From assembly GCA_965204175.1 (NCBI GenBank), contig OZ241978.1:4282728-4346727 (forward strand): 64,000 bases of DNA, read 5' to 3'. The translations under genes and the position numbers were made by a program. How positions within the stretch are numbered: the stretch's first letter is position 1; each line of letters begins with the position of its first letter. The notes under the pieces were generated by a model. It was not told where the DNA came from. It made no database searches and saw nothing but the letters and a program-made list of their open reading frames with translations. Positions 1-8,813 of this stretch are shown here, piece after piece. Origin of the DNA: Vicinamibacterales bacterium (GTDB lineage Bacteria > Acidobacteriota > Vicinamibacteria > Vicinamibacterales > UBA8438).

Positions 1-1902
1 CAACGCCCAGAATCGACACCATTTGTCGTCAGATCCGGAGTCGACGCACAGCAGCCTTGACGCGATATGCTTGAAATGACTTTCCGCCGACTCGAGGCTG
101 ACGCCGAGTTCTCGGAGCGCACGACGTGCGTCCGCATCGCTCGCCAGCCCTGTGTGCACTAGTTCGTCCGCGTTCGACGGCGATTCTGCATCCGTCATGT
201 CGCGCGGCAGGAACACGTGGTCCGGATCGACCGGTTTCCAGACGCAATTCTGTGTCAGGATGATCTTGCCGAGCGTGTGCGGGCTGCGCAAGCGCGGCGG
301 AATGGCCGCCGCCGTCAGCAGGGCGGCCCTGGATGCTTCGACCGCCTCATCCCCGGTCTTTCCCATCACAAGGGCCTCCAGCCACTGCTGTGCGGAGGCG
401 TTCCGCGGATGGTGCGGATATCCGTTTGCCGACTTCCACTGCTCGATCAATAGTTCGACGCGAGCGAGTCGTGTGCGCGGGACCGCCCGACGATGAAGCC
501 AGTTCGACGGTCGCCCAGAGTATTGCGCCCACTGTTCCAATATCTTCGTCCCGAGCGCACCGTCTGAAGTCAACTCTCTCGGCGGATAGTTGACGTTCGG
601 GATACTGCACAGGACTCCATTCTGGTCGGGGACTACGTCACGCTCGCACAGCCCGGAGAGCAAACGCGTGCGGAGCCGTTCAATCTGCGAGGAGTCGCCC
701 GCCTCCCGGCGACGCGGCAGCGCATCCAGATGCCTTGCAGGGTCGCTACGCGTTGCGAGGCTGGACAAGTTGGCGGCGATCATCTCCGCCGCCGTGTCGA
801 TCAGTTCCTCGTTGTACGGTCCCGGCAAGAGATTCTGGCGGTCTTCGTTCGTCTTCCAGGGCGCGTTCAGGATACCGGCGACGAGACTCGCGGTCTTGGT
901 GGGAAAATACGCCCAGAAGACGCCGGGATCGGTCAACCGATCAAGCGGCGCGGCCCACCAGATCGGTACTTCATCGCCGTCGTCGAGCGACCTCCGATCG
1001 CCTCTGGCGTCGCTCGACAGCCGATGGACGACCTTGAACAGCTTCCAGTTTCCCGCCGTACCGCCATCGATGAGCCGAAACTCGCCGTCGTCGTTTTCGA
1101 GTTCGAGAACCCTCTCCAACGTCGAGCCATCGTCGATCGTCAATTGTCTGACATGCTCGACGAACAGAAGGAACGCGGATGGGAAGTCCTTCATCTGCTG
1201 CCGGAGGTCGTCGGCCGTACCAGGCTTGAGCGGCAGGCGCACGACGTTCGTCGCCCAGTCCATGAACTCGCACAGAACGGGATCAACATCGCGCGCCTCA
1301 TGAGGGTCGATAGGCTCGGCGACTCGCAGCACCGGACAGCGGTCGGCGCGAGGCGCGACTTCCCGTATGCGTTCACTGGCACGCCGGCGATCGAAACGAA
1401 AAGAGCCCGCGCGGCTGAAGAACTCGGGGGCGTCAGTCACGCCGAGGACGGACTTGAAGCCGAGTCCGAACCTCCCGATCTCGCTGGTCCCGCGTTTTGG
1501 CGACATGTGGGAGAACATGAGAGCCGTCACGCCAGCCTCATTGATCGGTTCGCCGTCGTCGGCACAATACAGACAGCCGTCGGTAAGGCGAATCGCGATG
1601 CGTCCTCCGTCGGACACGCTACTGAGCGCATCGGCCCCGTTCTGGACCAGCTCGAACAGTTGGCGGTGGGCATAGCCTCCGCGTGCTGTGTCCTGTTCGA
1701 GGTTGGCATGTTCGAGGACAAGGCGCGGCTGGTCCTTGTAGGCCGCGATGGTCCTTCGAGACTCCTCCGCGATGTAGGCACCCAGGTCTGCTTCAGGTCC
1801 GGCCCAATCCAGCGCCACGTCCTGAACTGGCAGATTCAGCTTGGCGTTCGGGCGAAAGAACCTGCCGCGCTCACCCGTGGAGAAGTCGTACTCGGGCCTC
1901 AT
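1..1902 (-). CDS. GHKL/Bergerat-fold ATPase, sacsin/paraMORC-like. Partial: the C-terminus lies beyond the window start. The first ~35 aa look like a BrnA antitoxin.
   Basis: My own translation of the minus strand is open for 634 codons from the ATG at 1902 to the window edge. It is missing from the ORF track because it has no stop. Motifs 'GGYAHRQLFELVQNGADAL' and 'EIGRFGLGFKSVLGVTD' fit sacsin-type HATPases. The ATG overlaps the brnT stop (ATGA, 1899-1902). Confidence 0.7.
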   Translation of the reverse strand, partial: MRPEYDFSTGERGRFFRPNAKLNLPVQDVALDWAGPEADLGAYIAEESRRTIAAYKDQPRLVLEHANLEQDTARGGYAHRQLFELVQNGADALSSVSDGGRIAIRLTDGCLYCADDGEPINEAGVTALMFSHMSPKRGTSEIGRFGLGFKSVLGVTDAPEFFSRAGSFRFDRRRASERIREVAPRADRCPVLRVAEPIDPHEARDVDPVLCEFMDWATNVVRLPLKPGTADDLRQQMKDFPSAFLLFVEHVRQLTIDDGSTLERVLELENDDGEFRLIDGGTAGNWKLFKVVHRLSSDARGDRRSLDDGDEVPIWWAAPLDRLTDPGVFWAYFPTKTASLVAGILNAPWKTNEDRQNLLPGPYNEELIDTAAEMIAANLSSLATRSDPARHLDALPRRREAGDSSQIERLRTRLLSGLCERDVVPDQNGVLCSIPNVNYPPRELTSDGALGTKILEQWAQYSGRPSNWLHRRAVPRTRLARVELLIEQWKSANGYPHHPRNASAQQWLEALVMGKTGDEAVEASRAALLTAAAIPPRLRSPHTLGKIILTQNCVWKPVDPDHVFLPRDMTDAESPSNADELVHTGLASDADARRALRELGVSLESAESHFKHIASRLLCVDSGSDDKWCRFWAL

Positions 1903-2222
1903 CTGCCTGACTCGTACTGCCGGCGTTCGTGTTTCGCCGGCCGCCGTGCAGAGATGATCCGGACCTTGGCCGCGTTGACGCCGGCTACGCGATACGTGTG
2001 GCTGATCACGATCAACCTCCCGTTCCGTGCACGTCCCAACGTCACCCAGCGCTCCTCGGTGTCGCTGTGGTCGTCATCCGGAATCGACACGGCCAACGGA
2101 TCGTTGAACACCGTCGCTGCCTGCTCGAACGCGATGCCGTGCTTGCGCCAATTCCCACGTGCCTTGACCGGATCCCAATCGAAGCGATACTCGAACACGG
2201 CTGCGCTCCCGCAGGGTCGCAC
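1899..2222 (-). CDS. brnT: BrnT-family (DUF497) type II toxin
   Basis: The 107-aa ORF carries the BrnT pattern 'FDWDPVKARGNWRKHGIAFEQAATVFNDP...EERWVTLG...VRIISARRPAKHERRQY'. Confidence 0.85.
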   Translation of the reverse strand: MRPCGSAAVFEYRFDWDPVKARGNWRKHGIAFEQAATVFNDPLAVSIPDDDHSDTEERWVTLGRARNGRLIVISHTYRVAGVNAAKVRIISARRPAKHERRQYESGR

Positions 2223-2350
2223 GCATCCTCACCGGACGGTACCGGGAGCGCCTCGCGGGAGTCGCCCGCCAACAACCGCAACAGTCTGATGATACGCTCT
2301 CGTGAGCGGGCAGCGCACGGGGAGGTGTCCGAAACAGCAAGGGATTCGCA

Positions 2351-2575
2351 ATGGCGGCGCGAAAGAAGTTCTCCAGTCAGGTCGCGCCCGAGCTGTTGGC
2401 GGCGATGCGCGAGATCGCCCGGAGCGATGGACGTCACTTCCAGTCCGTGCTGGAAGACGCAATGACCGGCTACATCGCGACCAGGGCTCGCCAGAAGGTG
2501 CGCCCAGAGGCGATGGCGCACTATCGGGCGAGCGTCGAGCGCAACCGGCTCCTGGCCGAGCTGCTGGCGAAATGA
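2351..2575 (+). CDS. Ribbon-helix-helix (CopG-like) DNA-binding protein, an orphan antitoxin-like gene
   Basis: The 74-aa ORF has an RHH-like opening, 'KKFSSQVAPELLAAMREIARSDGRHFQSVLEDAM'. It is divergent from brnT and has no toxin gene downstream. A degraded paralog lies at ~19991. Confidence 0.55.
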   Translation: MAARKKFSSQVAPELLAAMREIARSDGRHFQSVLEDAMTGYIATRARQKVRPEAMAHYRASVERNRLLAELLAK

Positions 2576-2725
2576 GCTGCAACTTCCCCGAGCGCCGGGC
2601 GCGATTCGCCTCGGTTCGGCTTGAGTCGCGGCCGGAAACCGCGTAGATTGAGCACCCGTCAAGTCTGCACCACCCTTGCCGCGGCACTGGCCGGCGAGGT
2701 TGCTCTCGCAGGAGGCATTCGACCC

Positions 2726-4654
2726 ATGGCTACGAGCTTGCTGGCGTCAGTTCATCAAGCGGCCCGGCGTTCGCCGCGGTTGCCGATCGTGACCCTCGCA
2801 CTGCTGGCGGCGACTCTCGCAACGCAGCCGCTGCAAGCCCAGGACGACTGGCAGCACTGGGGGCGCGATGCCGGCAACCAGCGCCACTCGCCGCTGACGC
2901 AGATCGACGTCGACAACGTCTCGACCCTGGTGCCCGCGTGGCGGTACGAGATGACGAAGGTGGGCGTGCCGTCACGCCCGAGCCAGTCAACTCCGCTGAT
3001 GGTCGACGGCGTCCTGTACCTGTCGTTCCCGTACTACCGCGTGGTGGCGCTGGAGCCGGAGACCGGCGACGAGATCTGGGAGTACACGGCGCCGGGAGAC
3101 TGGAACTCCCCGGAGCACCAGTTGCACTGGACGGGCGGCTCGATGCGGGGACTGGCCTGGTGGGAAGGCGACGACCGAACGCCGCCGCAGATCGTGTTCG
3201 GCACCGAGGAGGGCGAGCTGATCTCGCTGAACGCCGCCACCGGCATCCCCAACCCCCGGTTCGGCAGCGACGGCTTCGTCGACCTGAAGACCCCCGACGT
3301 GATGAACGGCTTCCCGAACATGCACTACGGGATCTCGTCCGGGGTGGCCATCTGGAAGCACCTCGTGTTCACCGGCGTCCACAACGCGGACGAGACGGGA
3401 TCGAAGGGGCCGGCCGGCGACACGCGCGCGTGGGACCTGCGGACGGGCGAGCTCGTCTGGACGTTCCACACCGTGCCCCACCCCGGCGAGTTCGGCAACG
3501 ACACCTGGCTCGACGACTCGTGGCGCAACGTCAGCGGCGCCAACACGTGGTCGTTCTTCACGGTCGACGCCGAGCGCGGCATCCTGTACATGCCGCTGGG
3601 GTCCGCCCACAACGACTTCTACGGCATGGACCGCCCCGGGGACAATCTCTTCTCGGACTCCATCGTCGCCGTCGACGCCCTAACGGGGGAGCGGCTGTGG
3701 CACTTCCAGGCCGTCCATCACGACCTGTGGGACCTGGACATGCCGGCGCCGCCGATCCTGTTCGACGTCGAGCGGGACGGCGAGACGATACCGGCCGTCG
3801 GCGTCATGACCAAGTACCCGGTGCTGTTCATCTTCAACCGGGTCACCGGCGAGCCGATCTACGAGATCGAAGAACGACCCGTCCCGCGGGGGAACATGCC
3901 CGGGGAATACTACTCGCCGACGCAGCCGTTCCCGGTGAAGCCGCCGCCCTTCGGGCGCATCCGTTTCACGATGGACGACATCGCGACGGTGACGCCGGAG
4001 CACACGGCCGCGTGCCGCGAGCTGCTGATGCGCTTCGACGGCGGGCGCAACCGCGGCCCCTACACGCCACCCTCCGAGGAGGGCGCGCTCGTGTTCCCGT
4101 CGACCGGTGGCGGGACGGAGTTCACCGGCGGGACCTTCGATCCGAGCCTCGGGTACTACATCATCAACTACGCTGACACCGGCCACATCAGCCAGCTCGT
4201 CAAGGTGGAGGATGATCCCGATCGCCGCGGCTACGTCGGTCCCCCAGAGTCGCGCCGGATCTACTGGCACGTGGTCACCCGGCCGTCCGTCAACGGCTGG
4301 CCCTGCTGGCAGCCGCCCTGGTCGCGACTGGTCGCCGTTGACGTCAACAGCGGCGAGATCGCCTGGCAGATCCCGTTCGGCACGGTCGAGGGCGCCCCTC
4401 CCGGCCTGCTGACCGGCGCTCCCAACTCGCAGAAGGGCGGGCCGACCTCCACCGCGGGAGGCGTGCTCTTCATCGGCGGGGCCAGCGACCGGCGGTTCCG
4501 CGCCTACGAGACGAAGACCGGGCGCGAGCTGTGGAGCGTCGAGACCGAGCAGATGATCAGCGGCGCCAACCCGATCACCTACCTGGGGAAGGACGGCAAG
4601 CAGTACGTCACCGTCGCCGCGGGCACCACGCTGCTGAGCTACACGCTGCCGTGA
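2726..4654 (+). CDS. Secreted PQQ-dependent (quinoprotein) dehydrogenase, beta-propeller
   Basis: AGGAGG sits 10 nt upstream of the ATG at 2726. The product has a signal peptide ending 'PLQAQ'. Motifs 'WQHWGRDAGNQRHSPLTQI' and 'WHFQAVHHDLWDLD', plus repeated propeller motifs, support the family call. Confidence 0.85.
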   Translation: MATSLLASVHQAARRSPRLPIVTLALLAATLATQPLQAQDDWQHWGRDAGNQRHSPLTQIDVDNVSTLVPAWRYEMTKVGVPSRPSQSTPLMVDGVLYLSFPYYRVVALEPETGDEIWEYTAPGDWNSPEHQLHWTGGSMRGLAWWEGDDRTPPQIVFGTEEGELISLNAATGIPNPRFGSDGFVDLKTPDVMNGFPNMHYGISSGVAIWKHLVFTGVHNADETGSKGPAGDTRAWDLRTGELVWTFHTVPHPGEFGNDTWLDDSWRNVSGANTWSFFTVDAERGILYMPLGSAHNDFYGMDRPGDNLFSDSIVAVDALTGERLWHFQAVHHDLWDLDMPAPPILFDVERDGETIPAVGVMTKYPVLFIFNRVTGEPIYEIEERPVPRGNMPGEYYSPTQPFPVKPPPFGRIRFTMDDIATVTPEHTAACRELLMRFDGGRNRGPYTPPSEEGALVFPSTGGGTEFTGGTFDPSLGYYIINYADTGHISQLVKVEDDPDRRGYVGPPESRRIYWHVVTRPSVNGWPCWQPPWSRLVAVDVNSGEIAWQIPFGTVEGAPPGLLTGAPNSQKGGPTSTAGGVLFIGGASDRRFRAYETKTGRELWSVETEQMISGANPITYLGKDGKQYVTVAAGTTLLSYTLP

Positions 4655-4765: not shown

Positions 4766-5140
4766 TTGCCTGCTGTGCGACAATGCCGCATGATGAATAC
4801 AGGCCAGATGTACCTGTACTTCACCCGTTCCTATGAACGCGCCATTCGCAAGCTGCTCTCGGAGGACGCCCGCAGGGAGATGGAGGCGGCGATCGTCGCC
4901 GCTCCCGATGCAGCACCGGTCGTCCGAGGGACGGGTGGCATCCGCAAGTTGCGCTGGGCCGGCTCCGGTCGGGGGAAGCGGGGCGGCATTCGCGCGCTCT
5001 ATTTCTGGTGTGTGGATCCCGGAGCCGTCTACATGCTGACGGCCTACGCGAAGGCGGATCGCGACGACCTCACCGCGGCGGACAGAAGGGCGCTGGCGCG
5101 GCTGGTAGCGGAAATCGAACGGGAGAGGCAGAAACGATGA
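4766..5140 (+). CDS. RelE/HigB-like toxin (COG4737-type)
   Basis: The motif 'GGIRKLRWAGSGRGKRGGIRALYF...YMLTAYAKADRDDL' fits this toxin family. The stop overlaps the ATG of the downstream HTH gene (ATGA at 5137-5140). The true start may be an internal Met at ~4790-4808. Confidence 0.75.
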   Translation: MPAVRQCRMMNTGQMYLYFTRSYERAIRKLLSEDARREMEAAIVAAPDAAPVVRGTGGIRKLRWAGSGRGKRGGIRALYFWCVDPGAVYMLTAYAKADRDDLTAADRRALARLVAEIERERQKR

Positions 5141-5499
5141 CGACGGACCGCACCGGAATCGGACAGGAAATCGAAGCGGCGCTGGGAGAAGTCGTCGCCC
5201 ATGTGCGCGGCGAGGCGACGCTGCCCTGCCGAATCGTGGATGCCCCCGCCGCCGACCGGGTCGTCGCCCTCCGCAAGCGGCTGAAGCTGAGCCGGCAGAA
5301 GTTCGCGGACCGTTTCGGCCTCGACGCGCGGGCCGTGCAGGAGTGGGAACAGGGCCGCCGAGTTCCGGACCGGGCCGCCCGCGTGCTGCTGACCGTGATC
5401 GACCGCGACCCGGAATCGGTCGTGCGGGCGCTCGCCGCAGAGGAATCCGGAACCGGCGAGACCCGACCTCAGGGAGCCGCGGCCTCCGAAATCCGGTAG
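5137..5499 (+). CDS. XRE-family HTH antitoxin (HigA-like)
   Basis: The HTH motif 'LRKRLKLSRQKFADRFGLDARAVQEWEQGRRVPDRAARVLLTVI' is present, and the gene is translationally coupled to the toxin gene. Confidence 0.8.
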   Translation: MTTDRTGIGQEIEAALGEVVAHVRGEATLPCRIVDAPAADRVVALRKRLKLSRQKFADRFGLDARAVQEWEQGRRVPDRAARVLLTVIDRDPESVVRALAAEESGTGETRPQGAAASEIR

Positions 5500-5778: not shown

Positions 5779-5926
5779 CTCGTTCCCCTTCGCGTTGGTC
5801 ACGGTTGGTTCATCCGATCATGCCCGCCTGACCGGCTCGGTGCGCCATCCGTCGCTCGCCATGCCTCGCTCACTGGACCGATCGCGCAGCGACCGGACGA
5901 GTCACCACTGCCAGCCCGGCCGCCCC

Positions 5927-8011
5927 CTACGGTTCCTCGACGGTGATCTCCCCGATCGCCCACGGGTGTTCCGTGCTGTGGTACAGGAACGTGCCCGGCT
6001 CGTCGAAGGTGACATAGCCCGTCATGGCCGGCTGCAGCGTGCCGGTGGTCCAGCTTCCGTCCCGCGCCGCGATCGTGTGCGGCATCCTGCCGTTGTTGAC
6101 GAACCGTACCCGCGTCCCGACGGTGACGCGGGCCCGCACCGGGTTGAACGCGAACTCGTTGATCGCGTTGCGACGCCCGCCCACCGACCAGGCGATGGGA
6201 TTCTCGACCAGCGTCGCGGTCTCGATGACGTCGGTCGCGCGCGGCGGCGGGCCGATCCAGCGGACCAGGTCGTCCAGCGGCTCCTCGGCCGTCGGACGCG
6301 CCGCCACGTCGCCGTCGAGCGAGAACGCCCAGAGCTCGCCGCCCACCGCGATGGCCACGTGCTGCTCGCCGTCGATCGCGTACGAGACCGCCGGTCCGGG
6401 GCGCAGCCGCACCCCGGGCGGGCCGGCCTGGAACGCCCACAGCCGGTCGCCGGTGGCGGCGTCGTAGGCCTCGAGCTGCCCGTCGGCCGAGCCCCAGAAC
6501 ATCAGACCGCCCGCGGTCGTCAGCGGACCGCTGGTGGCGAGCCGCGCGCCGCGGAACTCGTTCTTCCAGACCACCTCGCCCGTGCGACCGTCGACGGCGG
6601 CCAGGATGCCGGCCGACTCGGGCAGCGTCAGCCGCAGGTAGCCGCTGCCGCGGTTGTCCGAGATCCACGGATCGTCGAAGCGGAACGCGCGACCGACGTG
6701 CGCCCGCCCCTGCGCGTAGATGTAGCCGGTCTGCGGGCTGAACGACATCGGCGTGACCCGCACCATCGGAATCGGCGCGCCCAGCGCCACGATGTCCTGC
6801 CGCTCCAGCGACGGCGGCGTATAGAAGCTGCAGCTCAGCTCGAAGGGCGGCGGCACCCGGTCGCGCCAGAACGAGCAATCCGGCAGGATGCTGTCCCCCA
6901 CCGGGAAGGGCTGCGTAGGCGCGGTCAGCAGGTACTCGTCCTGCGGCACCGGCCGCTCCTCGATCGGCACGATCGGCTCGCCGGTCTCGCGGTCGAGCAG
7001 GAACAGATGGCCGTCGGCCCGCATCGCGGCCAGCGCCTTGCGGGTCCGCCCGTCCGTCTCGGTCTCGTAGAGCAGCAGCGGCGTGGCGATGTCGGCGTCC
7101 CAGATGTCGTGCCGGACCACCTGGTAGTGCCAGCGCCGATCGCCGGTCTCCATGTCGAGGGCGAGCACGGACGCGGTGAACAGGTTGTCGCCGGCGCGGA
7201 TCTCGCCGCCGTACATCGGGACCGGGTTGCCGGTGACGAAATAGACCATCCCCAGGTCCGGATCGACCGCGCCCACCAGCCAGACGCCGCCCCCGCCCAG
7301 CCGCCACACCTCGCTGTCCTGCGGCCACGTCTCGTGCCCGAACTCGCCGGGCCGCGGCACGACGAAGAACGTCCACAGCCGCTCCCCGGTCGCCGCGTCC
7401 AGGGCGATGACGCGCCCCTGTCCGCCGCTGTCGCCGTTGGCGATGCCGATGAACACCTTGCCCCGCGCGTGCATCGGCGCCGTCGTGACCGATTCGCCCG
7501 CCTGCGGCGGCTCGCTGCCGACCGTCTCCACCCAGACCAGCTCGCCGGTGTCCTGCCGCAGCGCCGCCACCTCCGCGCTCCGCAGCGGGACGAAGACGAG
7601 CCCGTCGCCCAGGCCGACCCCCTGCCACGACGGCACCCGCGCCGCCTCGGCGCCGGAGCTCCCCGGCTGCCAGCGCCACACCGTCTCGCCCGTCCGGCCG
7701 TCGATGGCGAACACGTTGGCGCCGCCCGACAGGTACAGAACGCCGTCGTCGACCACCGGCGTCGCCCGCGACGACACGCCGCCCGGGAGCCGCGTCATCC
7801 AGGCGCCGCCCAGCCGGTCGATGGTCTCCGTCGAGATGTCGGCCAGCGTCGAATGGCGCGAGCCGGTCCAGTCGCCGCCCGCGTACGGCCAGTCCGCGGC
7901 CGGGTAGCCGCTCCCCTGCTCCTGCGCCTCCTGCCCCTGCAGGCTGCCCGTCAGGGCGGAGATGCCGGCCACGAGTACGACGGCGACGAATCCACGGTGC
8001 AGTCTGCGCAT
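5927..8011 (-). CDS. Secreted PQQ-dependent dehydrogenase fused to a C-terminal cupredoxin-like domain
   Basis: A strong SD (GAGGAGAGGAAG) precedes the ATG at 8011, and the product has a signal peptide. Propeller motifs include 'WHYQVVRHDIWDAD'. The C-terminus 'VRFVNNGRMPHTIAA...GTFLYHSTEHPWAIGEITV' follows the plastocyanin/azurin pattern. Confidence 0.8.
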   Translation of the reverse strand: MRRLHRGFVAVVLVAGISALTGSLQGQEAQEQGSGYPAADWPYAGGDWTGSRHSTLADISTETIDRLGGAWMTRLPGGVSSRATPVVDDGVLYLSGGANVFAIDGRTGETVWRWQPGSSGAEAARVPSWQGVGLGDGLVFVPLRSAEVAALRQDTGELVWVETVGSEPPQAGESVTTAPMHARGKVFIGIANGDSGGQGRVIALDAATGERLWTFFVVPRPGEFGHETWPQDSEVWRLGGGGVWLVGAVDPDLGMVYFVTGNPVPMYGGEIRAGDNLFTASVLALDMETGDRRWHYQVVRHDIWDADIATPLLLYETETDGRTRKALAAMRADGHLFLLDRETGEPIVPIEERPVPQDEYLLTAPTQPFPVGDSILPDCSFWRDRVPPPFELSCSFYTPPSLERQDIVALGAPIPMVRVTPMSFSPQTGYIYAQGRAHVGRAFRFDDPWISDNRGSGYLRLTLPESAGILAAVDGRTGEVVWKNEFRGARLATSGPLTTAGGLMFWGSADGQLEAYDAATGDRLWAFQAGPPGVRLRPGPAVSYAIDGEQHVAIAVGGELWAFSLDGDVAARPTAEEPLDDLVRWIGPPPRATDVIETATLVENPIAWSVGGRRNAINEFAFNPVRARVTVGTRVRFVNNGRMPHTIAARDGSWTTGTLQPAMTGYVTFDEPGTFLYHSTEHPWAIGEITVEEP

Positions 8012-8072
8012 GACTTCCTCTCCTCGGACGCGCGAGTGTACCAGGGTATTATCCAGCCCGCGGAGAGACCAC

Positions 8073-8813
8073 GTGACCGCGACAGCACGATTCGTAGGCT
8101 CCGGCGACTCCTTCGGCAGCGGCGGGCGCTTCCAGACCTGCATCCTCATCGATGCCGGCGGGACGCGCTTCACGATGGACTTCGGCGCATCCTCGCTGGT
8201 CGCCCTGCGGCAGCAGGGCGTCGATCCGAACTCCATCGACACGATCCTCCTGACCCATCTTCACGGCGATCATTGCGCCGGCGTGCCGTTTCTGCTGATG
8301 GACGCGATGCTGGGCGCAAGACGCCGGAGGCCGCTCACCGTCGCCGGCCCGCGGGACCTGCGCCACCGCATGTTCCTGATCGCCGAGGCGCTGTTTCCCG
8401 GCATGCACATCATGAAACCGAAGTTCGAGCTCAACTGGATAGAGCTGGAGCACGGCGCGCCGACCCCGGTCGGAGGCCTCCTGGTGACCGCCCGCCCGGT
8501 GAAGCACACCTGGCAGACCAACCCTACCGCCCTGCGGGTGGAAGTCGGCGGCAAGGTAGTGTGCTACACGGGCGACGGGGAGTTCGGCGACGAGATGGCG
8601 CTGGCGGCCAAGGGGGCCGACCTGCTCGTGGCAGAGTGCTATTTTCACAAGAAGCCGGTGCCCTGGCATCTTAACTATCCCGAGCTGATCGCGCACAAGG
8701 CGGATTTCGGCGCTGAGCGCATCATCCTGACCCACATGAGCCCGGAGATGCTCGCCCACGTCGACGACGTCCCCGAGGAGTGCGCCTACGACGGGATGGT
8801 GGTCGAGTTTTGA
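8073..8813 (+). CDS. MBL-fold metallo-hydrolase
   Basis: The metal-binding motif 'LLTHLHGDHCAG' (HxHxDH) is present. The GTG start at 8073 has GGAGAG upstream. Confidence 0.8.
   Translation: MTATARFVGSGDSFGSGGRFQTCILIDAGGTRFTMDFGASSLVALRQQGVDPNSIDTILLTHLHGDHCAGVPFLLMDAMLGARRRRPLTVAGPRDLRHRMFLIAEALFPGMHIMKPKFELNWIELEHGAPTPVGGLLVTARPVKHTWQTNPTALRVEVGGKVVCYTGDGEFGDEMALAAKGADLLVAECYFHKKPVPWHLNYPELIAHKADFGAERIILTHMSPEMLAHVDDVPEECAYDGMVVEF

Follow-up and report, generated by a model that had tools for sequence, protein, structure and literature searches.

A brnT toxin gene overlapping a gene for a sacsin-type ATPase-helicase with an antitoxin-like N-terminal tag in a Vicinamibacterales bacterium

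A brnT gene and its large overlapping partner

At the left end of the window, i.e., the entire 64,000-nucleotide stretch of a Vicinamibacterales bacterium genome analyzed here (GenBank assembly GCA_965204175.1, contig OZ241978.1, positions 4,282,728 to 4,346,727), two overlapping genes are found on the minus strand. The first is brnT (1899..2198, minus strand), predicted to encode a 99-residue RelE-fold RNase toxin. The second, of which the first 634 codons lie in the window (1..1902, minus strand), encodes a large protein in which a short N-terminal peptide homologous to the beginning of a BrnT antitoxin, termed the tag, precedes an ATPase and a helicase.

The longest form of the BrnT open reading frame (ORF) spans 1899..2222 of the minus strand. 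The true start is likely the GTG at 2198, which lies 8 nt after the sequence GGGAG (2206..2210, minus strand), read as a Shine-Dalgarno-like element and presumably acting as such. This start yields a product of 99 residues, the same length as that of an existing gene call for a 99%-identical protein (P0121). Pfam family PF04365 (BrnT_toxin, DUF497) was matched along the complete profile (positions 1-77 of 77; E = 1.6e-25; 89.6 bits against a cut-off of 34.5), and a search of Protein Data Bank (PDB) sequences returned chain A of 7VD7 (7vd7_A; E = 1e-16). In the AlphaFold2 (AF2) model, the BrnT portion of which has a predicted local distance difference test score (pLDDT) of ~95, a BrnT/RelE-like fold is seen that superimposes on 7vd7_A with a template modeling (TM) score of 0.90 and a root-mean-square deviation of 1.6; the BrnT of entry 3u97 was also matched. 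All family-invariant BrnT residues are kept in the window protein, from which RNase activity is predicted.

The brnT stop codon (TGA, 1899..1901) and the ATG of the large gene (1900..1902) have two bases in common, forming an ATGA overlap (1899..1902, minus strand) that had already been described in an earlier note on this DNA, written from the sequence alone. From the ATG at 1902, the frame stays open for 634 codons up to window position 1, again as that note had it, and is missing from the ORF list solely because the window ends there. The same ATGA junction is present in related ATPase loci and in most canonical brnT/small-antitoxin pairs. In contigs of independent samples (L179 and runs X1 and X3), the stretch where brnT meets the ATPase gene shows 0-1 differences, which speaks against an artifact of assembly.

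Domain architecture of the large protein

The missing part of the gene was recovered by the leftward extension that the earlier note had proposed. L179, a 6.8-kb contig from another sample that was reached via P0121 and that is 99.1% identical to window positions 1..3200 over 3,200 bases, contains the full-length ortholog (99% identical), which comprises 1,521 residues, ends in a superfamily 2 (SF2) helicase and is followed by a hydantoinase-like gene. Across the part encoded in the window, 631 of 634 residues are the same. The protein is thus composed of a tag of ~26 residues, a sacsin/Tiamat-type GHKL ATPase, a middle region of ~650 residues for which no Pfam or other family match was obtained, and a C-terminal SF2 helicase of the ResIII/DEAD type. 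As such, the earlier description of an ATPase of more than 630 residues was right in pointing to a large ATPase but incomplete in considering an ATPase alone.

The ATPase module covers residues ~41-442 (577..1782, minus strand). Of the nine TmtA models of the PADLOC collection that were matched, PDLC03964 scored best (E = 4.1e-52), with residues 41-442 aligning to model positions 10-416 of 1538. The NCBIfam family NF047352 (P_loop_sacsin) was matched by residues 80-161 (E = 1.1e-18; 67.4 bits against a cut-off of 50), and Pfam SACS was matched below its cut-off (E = 2.2e-6; 28.1 bits against 32.8). Both ATPase motifs quoted in the earlier note, namely, QLFELVQNGADAL (residues 81-93) and GRFGLGFKSVLGV (residues 143-155), are present. 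In an alignment of 37 sequences, residues E84, L85, Q87, N88, A90 and D91 of the Bergerat N-box ELVQNGADA (residues 84-92; 1627..1653, minus strand) are invariant, as are F145, G146, G148, F149 and K150 of the glycine-rich ATP-lid GRFGLGFKS (residues 143-151; 1450..1476, minus strand), which lies inside both the Pfam SACS and the NCBIfam sacsin matches.

The ATPase standing in the antitoxin slot had been described as being of the sacsin/paraMORC type. The sacsin assignment holds (NF047352), with TmtA being the closest defense relative. By contrast, membership in the MORC/paraMORC group was not supported, since the window ATPase did not reach significance with the MORC-type profile HATPase_c_3 (E = 0.27; 11.7 bits, cut-off 25).

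Beyond the window, the L179 ortholog presents GSGKT, DEAH and QMIGRGLRG, corresponding to SF2 helicase motifs I, II and VI. In a second homolog (L003; 1,533 residues, 82% identical), ResIII (4e-24), DEAD (1e-15) and Helicase_C (8e-14) were matched by residues ~1100-1500. When the same protein was compared with TmtA, only model positions 11-415 of 1,538 aligned, with its C-terminus matching ResIII, DEAD and Helicase_C, as well as the helicase parts of PbeA and mREase_IV. In some lineages, the helicase is encoded by a separate gene downstream of the ATPase. In every instance, members of this ATPase family either carry or are paired with an SF2 ResIII/DEAD helicase.

Origin of the N-terminal tag

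Among the 120 best homologs of the large protein, many, at just 50-77% identity, open with M[KR]xEYDFSxGERG[KR]F[FY], with others opening some 30 residues later at DWAGPxGxLGxYI. In the window protein, the corresponding tag comprises residues 1-26 (MRPEYDFSTGERGRFFRPNAKLNLPV; 1825..1902, minus strand) and contains the core RGKF[FY] in the form RGRFF. PF14384 (BrnA/DUF4415) was not matched by residues 1-65 or by the entire protein even at E ≤ 10, under conditions where a plasmid-encoded BrnA serving as positive control gave E = 3e-20. A search of PDB sequences with a 40-residue tag returned only a chance match to HDAC7, and none was obtained with a small EYDFS antitoxin.

Because the tag has no Pfam or NCBIfam match, the genes following the closest relatives of brnT were surveyed. 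A metagenome scan yielded 80 such loci at 45-62% identity, 79 of which were usable. For 65 of these, the gene that follows codes for a protein of ~66 residues that begins MKxEYDFSKGERGKFYRPxAxLxLPIYLDxDV and continues into a ribbon-helix-helix (RHH)-like body, usually with the same ATGA overlap. This class of small EYDFS antitoxins is without a curated family, its best match being CopG_antitoxin at E = 0.2, and has only the RGKF[FY] core in common with canonical BrnA.

A hidden Markov model (HMM) built from 35 of these small BrnT-cognate antitoxins, without any ATPase sequence, was searched against 20,299 ORF segments drawn from the window and 82 ATPase loci. The window ATPase was matched at E = 1.8e-10, with HMM positions 1-26 falling on residues 1-26. 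The N-termini of 47 other ATPases were likewise matched, in each case only along the first 25-26 residues, and beyond these the sole match was one genuine small antitoxin. On this comparison, the tag corresponds to the opening ~26 residues of the small antitoxin that normally goes with BrnT, stopping where the RHH strand would start. The RHH body itself is absent, given how the HMM match ends at position 26 of ~66 and how the sequence after residue ~30 is the ATPase core common to tagless homologs. The partner of this BrnT departs from the small, labile, autoregulating antitoxin of a classical type II pair, being a protein of 1,521 residues without a DNA-binding antitoxin domain.

These results modify what had been proposed for the N-terminus. 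An antitoxin-like opening of ~35 residues had been noted, and a match to the BrnA profile had been suggested as a check. An antitoxin-derived docking tag is indeed found, as seen with the HMM of BrnT-cognate antitoxins; it is shorter, at ~26 residues, and its relationship is not to the BrnA/DUF4415 profile PF14384. The resemblance of 'DV..W' to a BrnA helix is coincidental: the HMM match does not reach past residue 26, and W33 is part of 'DWAGP', the opening of the ATPase core that is also found in tagless homologs.

In codons 2-18 of 48 tagged loci, nucleotide differences amount to 0.15 at the first codon position, 0.24 at the second and 0.47 at the third. This is the pattern to be expected of a peptide translated in this frame and under purifying selection.

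Co-occurrence of tag and brnT

The distribution of the ATPase was considered in a scan including one genome per species, which provided 80 ATPase loci, mostly from marine or sponge-associated metagenome-assembled genomes of Vicinamibacterales, Binatia, Latescibacterota, Alpha- and Gammaproteobacteria, Spirochaetia, Dehalococcoidia and Acidimicrobiia. EYDFS tags are carried by the ATPases of 47 loci. At the ATPase ATG, 34 of these have an intact brnT, 10 have a frameshifted or truncated remnant, and 3 show no trace of the gene. Not one of the 31 loci with a tagless ATPase has brnT at this position. The co-occurrence of tag and toxin gene is thus near-obligate, an intact or decayed brnT running up to the ATPase ATG in 44/47 tagged versus 0/31 tagless loci (Fisher p = 1e-18). 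It had been asked earlier whether orthologous ATPases bearing the tag also sit downstream of brnT elsewhere, and they do. A scan of the viral_contigs set for BrnT gave no confirmed locus.

The earlier note had left a choice between a conflict module and a chimera resulting from a rearrangement inside brnA. The recurrence of the tag-brnT arrangement in other genomes favors the former. A one-off chimera or pseudogene restricted to this genome, or a true ATPase start at a downstream Met with a fortuitous overlap, might have been entertained on first impression and given how tagless homologs begin near residue 30. Such explanations are, however, extremely improbable and are considered refuted by the conservation of the tag, the antitoxin HMM, the co-occurrence and the codon pattern. 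The same tag, with its excess of third-codon-position variation, is seen on 48 homologs that span 50-82% identity and several phyla (Acidobacteriota, Binatia, Latescibacterota, Alpha- and Gammaproteobacteria, Spirochaetia and Gemmatimonadota), the junction is seen in independent samples, and residues 1-128 offer no second in-frame Met ahead of the conserved core.

The spread of the ATPase family is patchy and takes in at least eight phyla. An exhaustive search returned 3,089 relatives at E ≤ 0.001 and, at E ≤ 1e-30, 454 clusters at 50% identity, most with proteins of ~1,540 residues. As the alignment of these starts only at residue ~32, most relatives are tagless. About one-fifth of ATPase copies are truncated or pseudogenized. 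In 13 tagged loci, brnT has decayed and the ATPase has been kept; the large protein is therefore of value without the toxin. In a neighbor-joining tree of the ATPase core, which is rough and not robust, EYDFS-tagged forms fall into at least three clades interleaved with tagless forms, and those with an HI1420-type N-terminus (see below) form a single clade. This suggests repeated gain, loss or exchange of the tag.

No conserved upstream partner was found for tagless ATPase genes. Adjoining genes code for restriction enzymes of the GmrSD type (in two cases), for a subunit of a ResIII helicase, for a RES toxin and for an HNH-like protein; McrBC is likewise found among the neighbors of ATPase loci other than that in the window. 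These surroundings bear on the possibility that the locus is a toxin-antitoxin-chaperone-like system, in which an Hsp90/sacsin-like ATPase that is no nucleic-acid sensor keeps the tag or toxin folded or assembled. Sacsin-type GHKL modules are related to Hsp90, eukaryotic sacsin has been described as a chaperone (PMC3710099), and the GHKL motifs are intact here. Still, chaperone control is quite improbable, as the ever-present or paired SF2 helicase, TmtA as the closest match in a defense database and restriction systems as neighbors would be unexpected for a protein chaperone.

Several additional observations were made on individual members of the family. In L075 (5623..7257), the brnT stop codon has been lost, leaving BrnT fused in frame to the tag-ATPase, and in P0041 and P0086, internal deletions have left a partial BrnT running into the tag or, with the tag gone, straight into the ATPase core; all three are decay products. 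In L080 (4610..5186), a tagless ATPase is preceded, at a distance of ~700 bp, by a separate and complete canonical pair of brnT and a PF14384-type brnA, which could reflect either a pre-fusion arrangement or coincidence. Many tagless members from Chloroflexota/Dehalococcoidia, as seen at the ATPase N-termini (~5820-5990) of L034, L041, L045, L046, L059, L062, L069, L070, L074 and L080, carry a Lys/Arg-rich extension of 30-60 residues (MAKRKKRNRKQ...) where the tag would be. Finally, in the distant members P0298, P0302 and P0305, an N-terminal extension of ~280 residues (residues 1 to ~285) without a Pfam match could be another fused partner or effector.

Other matched tags and toxins

EYDFS is not the only type of antitoxin N-terminus found on this ATPase family. 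Some ATPases carry a canonical BrnA-type N-terminus (PDDEIDTTDIPEVRDWSGAVRG; DIPE..DW..AVRG) and have an overlapping brnT upstream. P0099 and P0112, of this type, open with ...LPDDEIDTTDIPEVRDWSGAVRG, and both adjoin McrBC. This type of N-terminus was matched by BLASTP to a plasmid-encoded PF14384 BrnA (3e-10); it also matched the 7vd7_B antitoxin fragment of the PDB (E = 0.0015). In P0094, P0116, L063 and L071, the ~55 N-terminal residues align with the 'antidote' profile HI1420 at its positions 3-52 (HI1420/HigA type). In all five loci of this type, and in no others, a Gp49/HigB-type toxin (PF05973; 29.3 bits, cut-off 23.9) ends ~10 nt upstream of the ATPase, the toxin being displaced by an insertion sequence (IS) element in one of the five. 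As a side observation, IS630/DDE_3-type transposase pairs at 2450..7100 of L175/L176 flank an HI1420-tagged ATPase, part it from the Gp49 toxin (L175) and split off the helicase part.

The swaps of tag and toxin are thus matched, and they speak to the view that the locus serves addiction or stabilization only. In such a type II-like toxin-antitoxin (TA) system, antitoxin function would reside at the N-terminus of a large gene and lead to post-segregational killing, with no sensing or release linked to the ATPase. The tag is, after all, a genuine antitoxin N-terminus, the genes are ordered and overlap as in brnTA, the two-gene cassette moves among unrelated neighborhoods, and natural BrnT-antitoxin fusions reveal that the pair tolerates odd architectures. 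Addiction alone is nonetheless rather unlikely. The recruitment of three different toxin/tag pairs to one ATPase-helicase family argues for an association centered on the large protein and against its being a passive carrier. Moreover, truncated genes would still make the N-terminal tag, such that addiction would leave the 4.5-kb gene unprotected from decay, and loci in which the ATPase is truncated but tag and brnT are intact do exist (L011, L017 and L057). A stable 170-kDa enzyme would also make a poor labile antitoxin.

A structural model of BrnT and the tag

In the BrnT-type complex from Salmonella (7VD7), the antitoxin chain is a 44-residue N-terminal fragment without the RHH domain (LSAQHEAELKALAKKSDDEIDYSDIP...WSEAVRGKFF), and the RGKFF at the end of 7vd7_B is the same core as that found in EYDFSxGERGKF[FY]. 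The RHH of BrnA sits C-terminally (PMC11980606). In VcHigBA2, likewise a toxin-first system, a 20-residue N-terminal peptide of HigA2 is enough to neutralize the toxin (PMC5416850).

The window BrnT joined to tag residues 1-33 was modeled with AF2 from an alignment in which 67 BrnT proteins were combined with 6 naturally occurring BrnT-antitoxin fusions. The model of BrnT plus tag has a mean pLDDT of 87 and a predicted TM score of 0.82. Within it, tag residues 12-21 (RGRFFRPNAK) reach a pLDDT of 94, and a short strand is formed at residues 21-23. The model, together with the analogy to 7VD7 and VcHigA2, is consistent with the tag physically binding BrnT.

A proposed toxin-plus-sensor module

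The explanation favored here, and the one that probably applies, is that brnT and the tag-ATPase-helicase gene form a two-gene toxin-plus-sensor module, in which a defense-type ATPase-helicase would keep an RNase effector tethered and masked until, once activated, it lets the effector go. In this manner, BrnT would be translated first, with translational coupling then supplying the ATPase-helicase. The N-terminal peptide of the latter would bind BrnT, mask the RNase and tie the toxin to the large enzyme, the DNA-binding and dimerizing RHH body of the antitoxin presumably having been discarded. Activation could involve an ATP- or nucleic-acid-driven conformational change, or else degradation or inhibition of the large protein by an invader. 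At that point, the tag would let go of BrnT, and the freed RNase would shut down translation, resulting in abortive infection. A tether of BrnT to the large enzyme is well supported; we further infer neutralization of the toxin, a trigger and a role in defense.

Because tagless relatives are autonomous single genes, often lying by restriction or toxin genes, the ATPase-helicase is likely a nucleic-acid-sensing defense protein in its own right, with BrnT most likely being an added abortive-infection effector. The neighbors of tagless genes, the truncation of some one-fifth of copies and the homology to TmtA point, as contextual evidence short of proof, to an autonomous defense-type NTPase.

Several points weigh against the toxin-plus-sensor module. 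Neither the tag nor the first 65 residues matched any family in Pfam or NCBIfam, and hence no curated antitoxin family. A scan for promoters and terminators 5' of brnT revealed no minus-strand site, with no promoter or operator being identified, and the loss of the RHH body leaves autoregulation of brnT unexplained. The homology to TmtA is confined to the ATPase module, some of the 'decayed' brnT copies may reflect long-read indel errors, and the surroundings in the window (pyrroloquinoline quinone (PQQ) dehydrogenases and a hydantoinase-like gene) look metabolic and not like a defense island. Contact between the tag and BrnT is deduced from AF2 confidence values only, the paired part of the alignment is shallow (the six fusions), and single-sequence AF2 of BrnT plus tag gave a pLDDT of 40.

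More tentatively, the widespread family of sacsin-type ATPase-helicases of ~1,500 residues, which is especially frequent in sponge and marine symbionts, may be an unrecognized defense sensor that takes interchangeable TA toxins (BrnT twice and Gp49/HigB once) by means of grafted neutralizing antitoxin peptides. Such a modular use of an antitoxin peptide as an effector leash would link TA systems to NTPase-driven immunity.

Relation to known systems

The pair resembles BrnT/BrnA of Brucella abortus (PF04365 and PF14384; PDB 3U97 and 7VD7) in its toxin family, toxin-first order, stop/start overlap and N-terminal RGKF[FY] toxin-binding segment. It differs in having no RHH and no PF14384 match, with the 'antitoxin' corresponding to the first 26 residues of a 1,521-residue protein and the donor being the uncurated 66-residue EYDFS class. 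Eukaryotic sacsin and prokaryotic paraMORC proteins likewise contain a Bergerat-fold ATPase, and the sacsin-type motifs (NF047352) are held in common; the HEPN, DnaJ and repeated SRR architecture is, however, lacking here, and HATPase_c_3 is not significant. In the defense systems PARIS (AriA-AriB) and Hachiman (HamB-HamA), a toxic effector is kept in check by a large ATPase or helicase until a trigger arrives. The similarity to these lies in the proposed logic only, whereby a sensor NTPase would sequester an effector nuclease and free it on infection. There is no sequence relationship, and here a swappable antitoxin peptide is fused to the sensor, with a classical TA toxin as effector.

Toxin-first order and a short N-terminal neutralizing segment are also features of VcHigB2/HigA2 and the HI1419/HI1420-type (Gp49/HigB) pairs (PMC5416850), and a sub-branch of the ATPase family carries that segment and has a Gp49-type toxin upstream. 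This pair is absent from the window locus, and in the sub-branch, the ATPase replaces the C-terminal helix-turn-helix (HTH) of the antidote. Tiamat, a single-gene anti-phage system (TmtA; PADLOC PDLC03964-72) that has been grouped among PD-(D/E)XK single-gene systems (bioRxiv 10.1101/2024.10.26.620412), is of similar size (~1,500 residues), with a homologous N-terminal sacsin-type GHKL module of ~400 residues, and tagless members of the present family are, like it, single genes, located near defense-type neighbors. In contrast to Tiamat, which has no partner toxin or antitoxin tag, the protein considered here has a C-terminal SF2 helicase, and its match stops at TmtA model position 416 of 1,538.

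In a 2025 survey of toxins of the RelE/ParE superfamily, BrnT-BrnA fusions and a tripartite operon of PtuA-like type are listed, though not the brnT/tag-ATPase-helicase arrangement. Nor was a description of this arrangement found in the literature on BrnT and sacsin, DUF497 and helicases, sacsin-like proteins and helicases, the mechanism of Tiamat, or 7VD7. If true, the model would offer a clean natural case of TA parts being rewired into a larger immune machine, with a neutralizing peptide of ~25 residues kept and the regulator body exchanged for an ATP-driven sensor. The three matched tag/toxin combinations amount to a natural swap experiment, and the model is directly testable. It would also, if true, provide a functional handle on bacterial Tiamat-like sacsin-type ATPases and on the uncurated EYDFS-type antitoxins that accompany many BrnT proteins. 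Short, portable toxin-masking peptides could, moreover, serve as tools.

Genomic surroundings

The gene downstream of the ATPase is hydantoinase-like, and upstream neighbors vary between loci. Because flanking genes change from one locus to the next, the module is taken to consist of two genes. Divergent from brnT lies an ORF of 74 residues with the look of an RHH protein (2351..2575, plus strand; KKFSSQVAPELLAAMREIA...), identical in L179. It has no Pfam or NCBIfam family, is not found in any other ATPase locus and was not matched by the antitoxin HMM. The idea that it is the split-off body of the antitoxin was rejected on account of the last two of these findings. The ORF is probably a neighbor outside the module and might regulate the shared intergenic region in a lineage-specific manner.

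Further along the window, two long ORFs (2621..4654, plus strand, and 5927..8242, minus strand) resemble secreted PQQ-dependent dehydrogenases, as judged by eye from their translations. Between them, 2.5 kb from brnT, lies a separate toxin-first TA pair of overlapping genes (4766..5499, plus strand), encoding a RelE-family toxin of 124 residues (Pfam RelE, 2.6e-6) and an HTH/MqsA-like antitoxin of 120 residues (HTH_3, 1.2e-5; MqsA_antitoxin, 2.2e-6).

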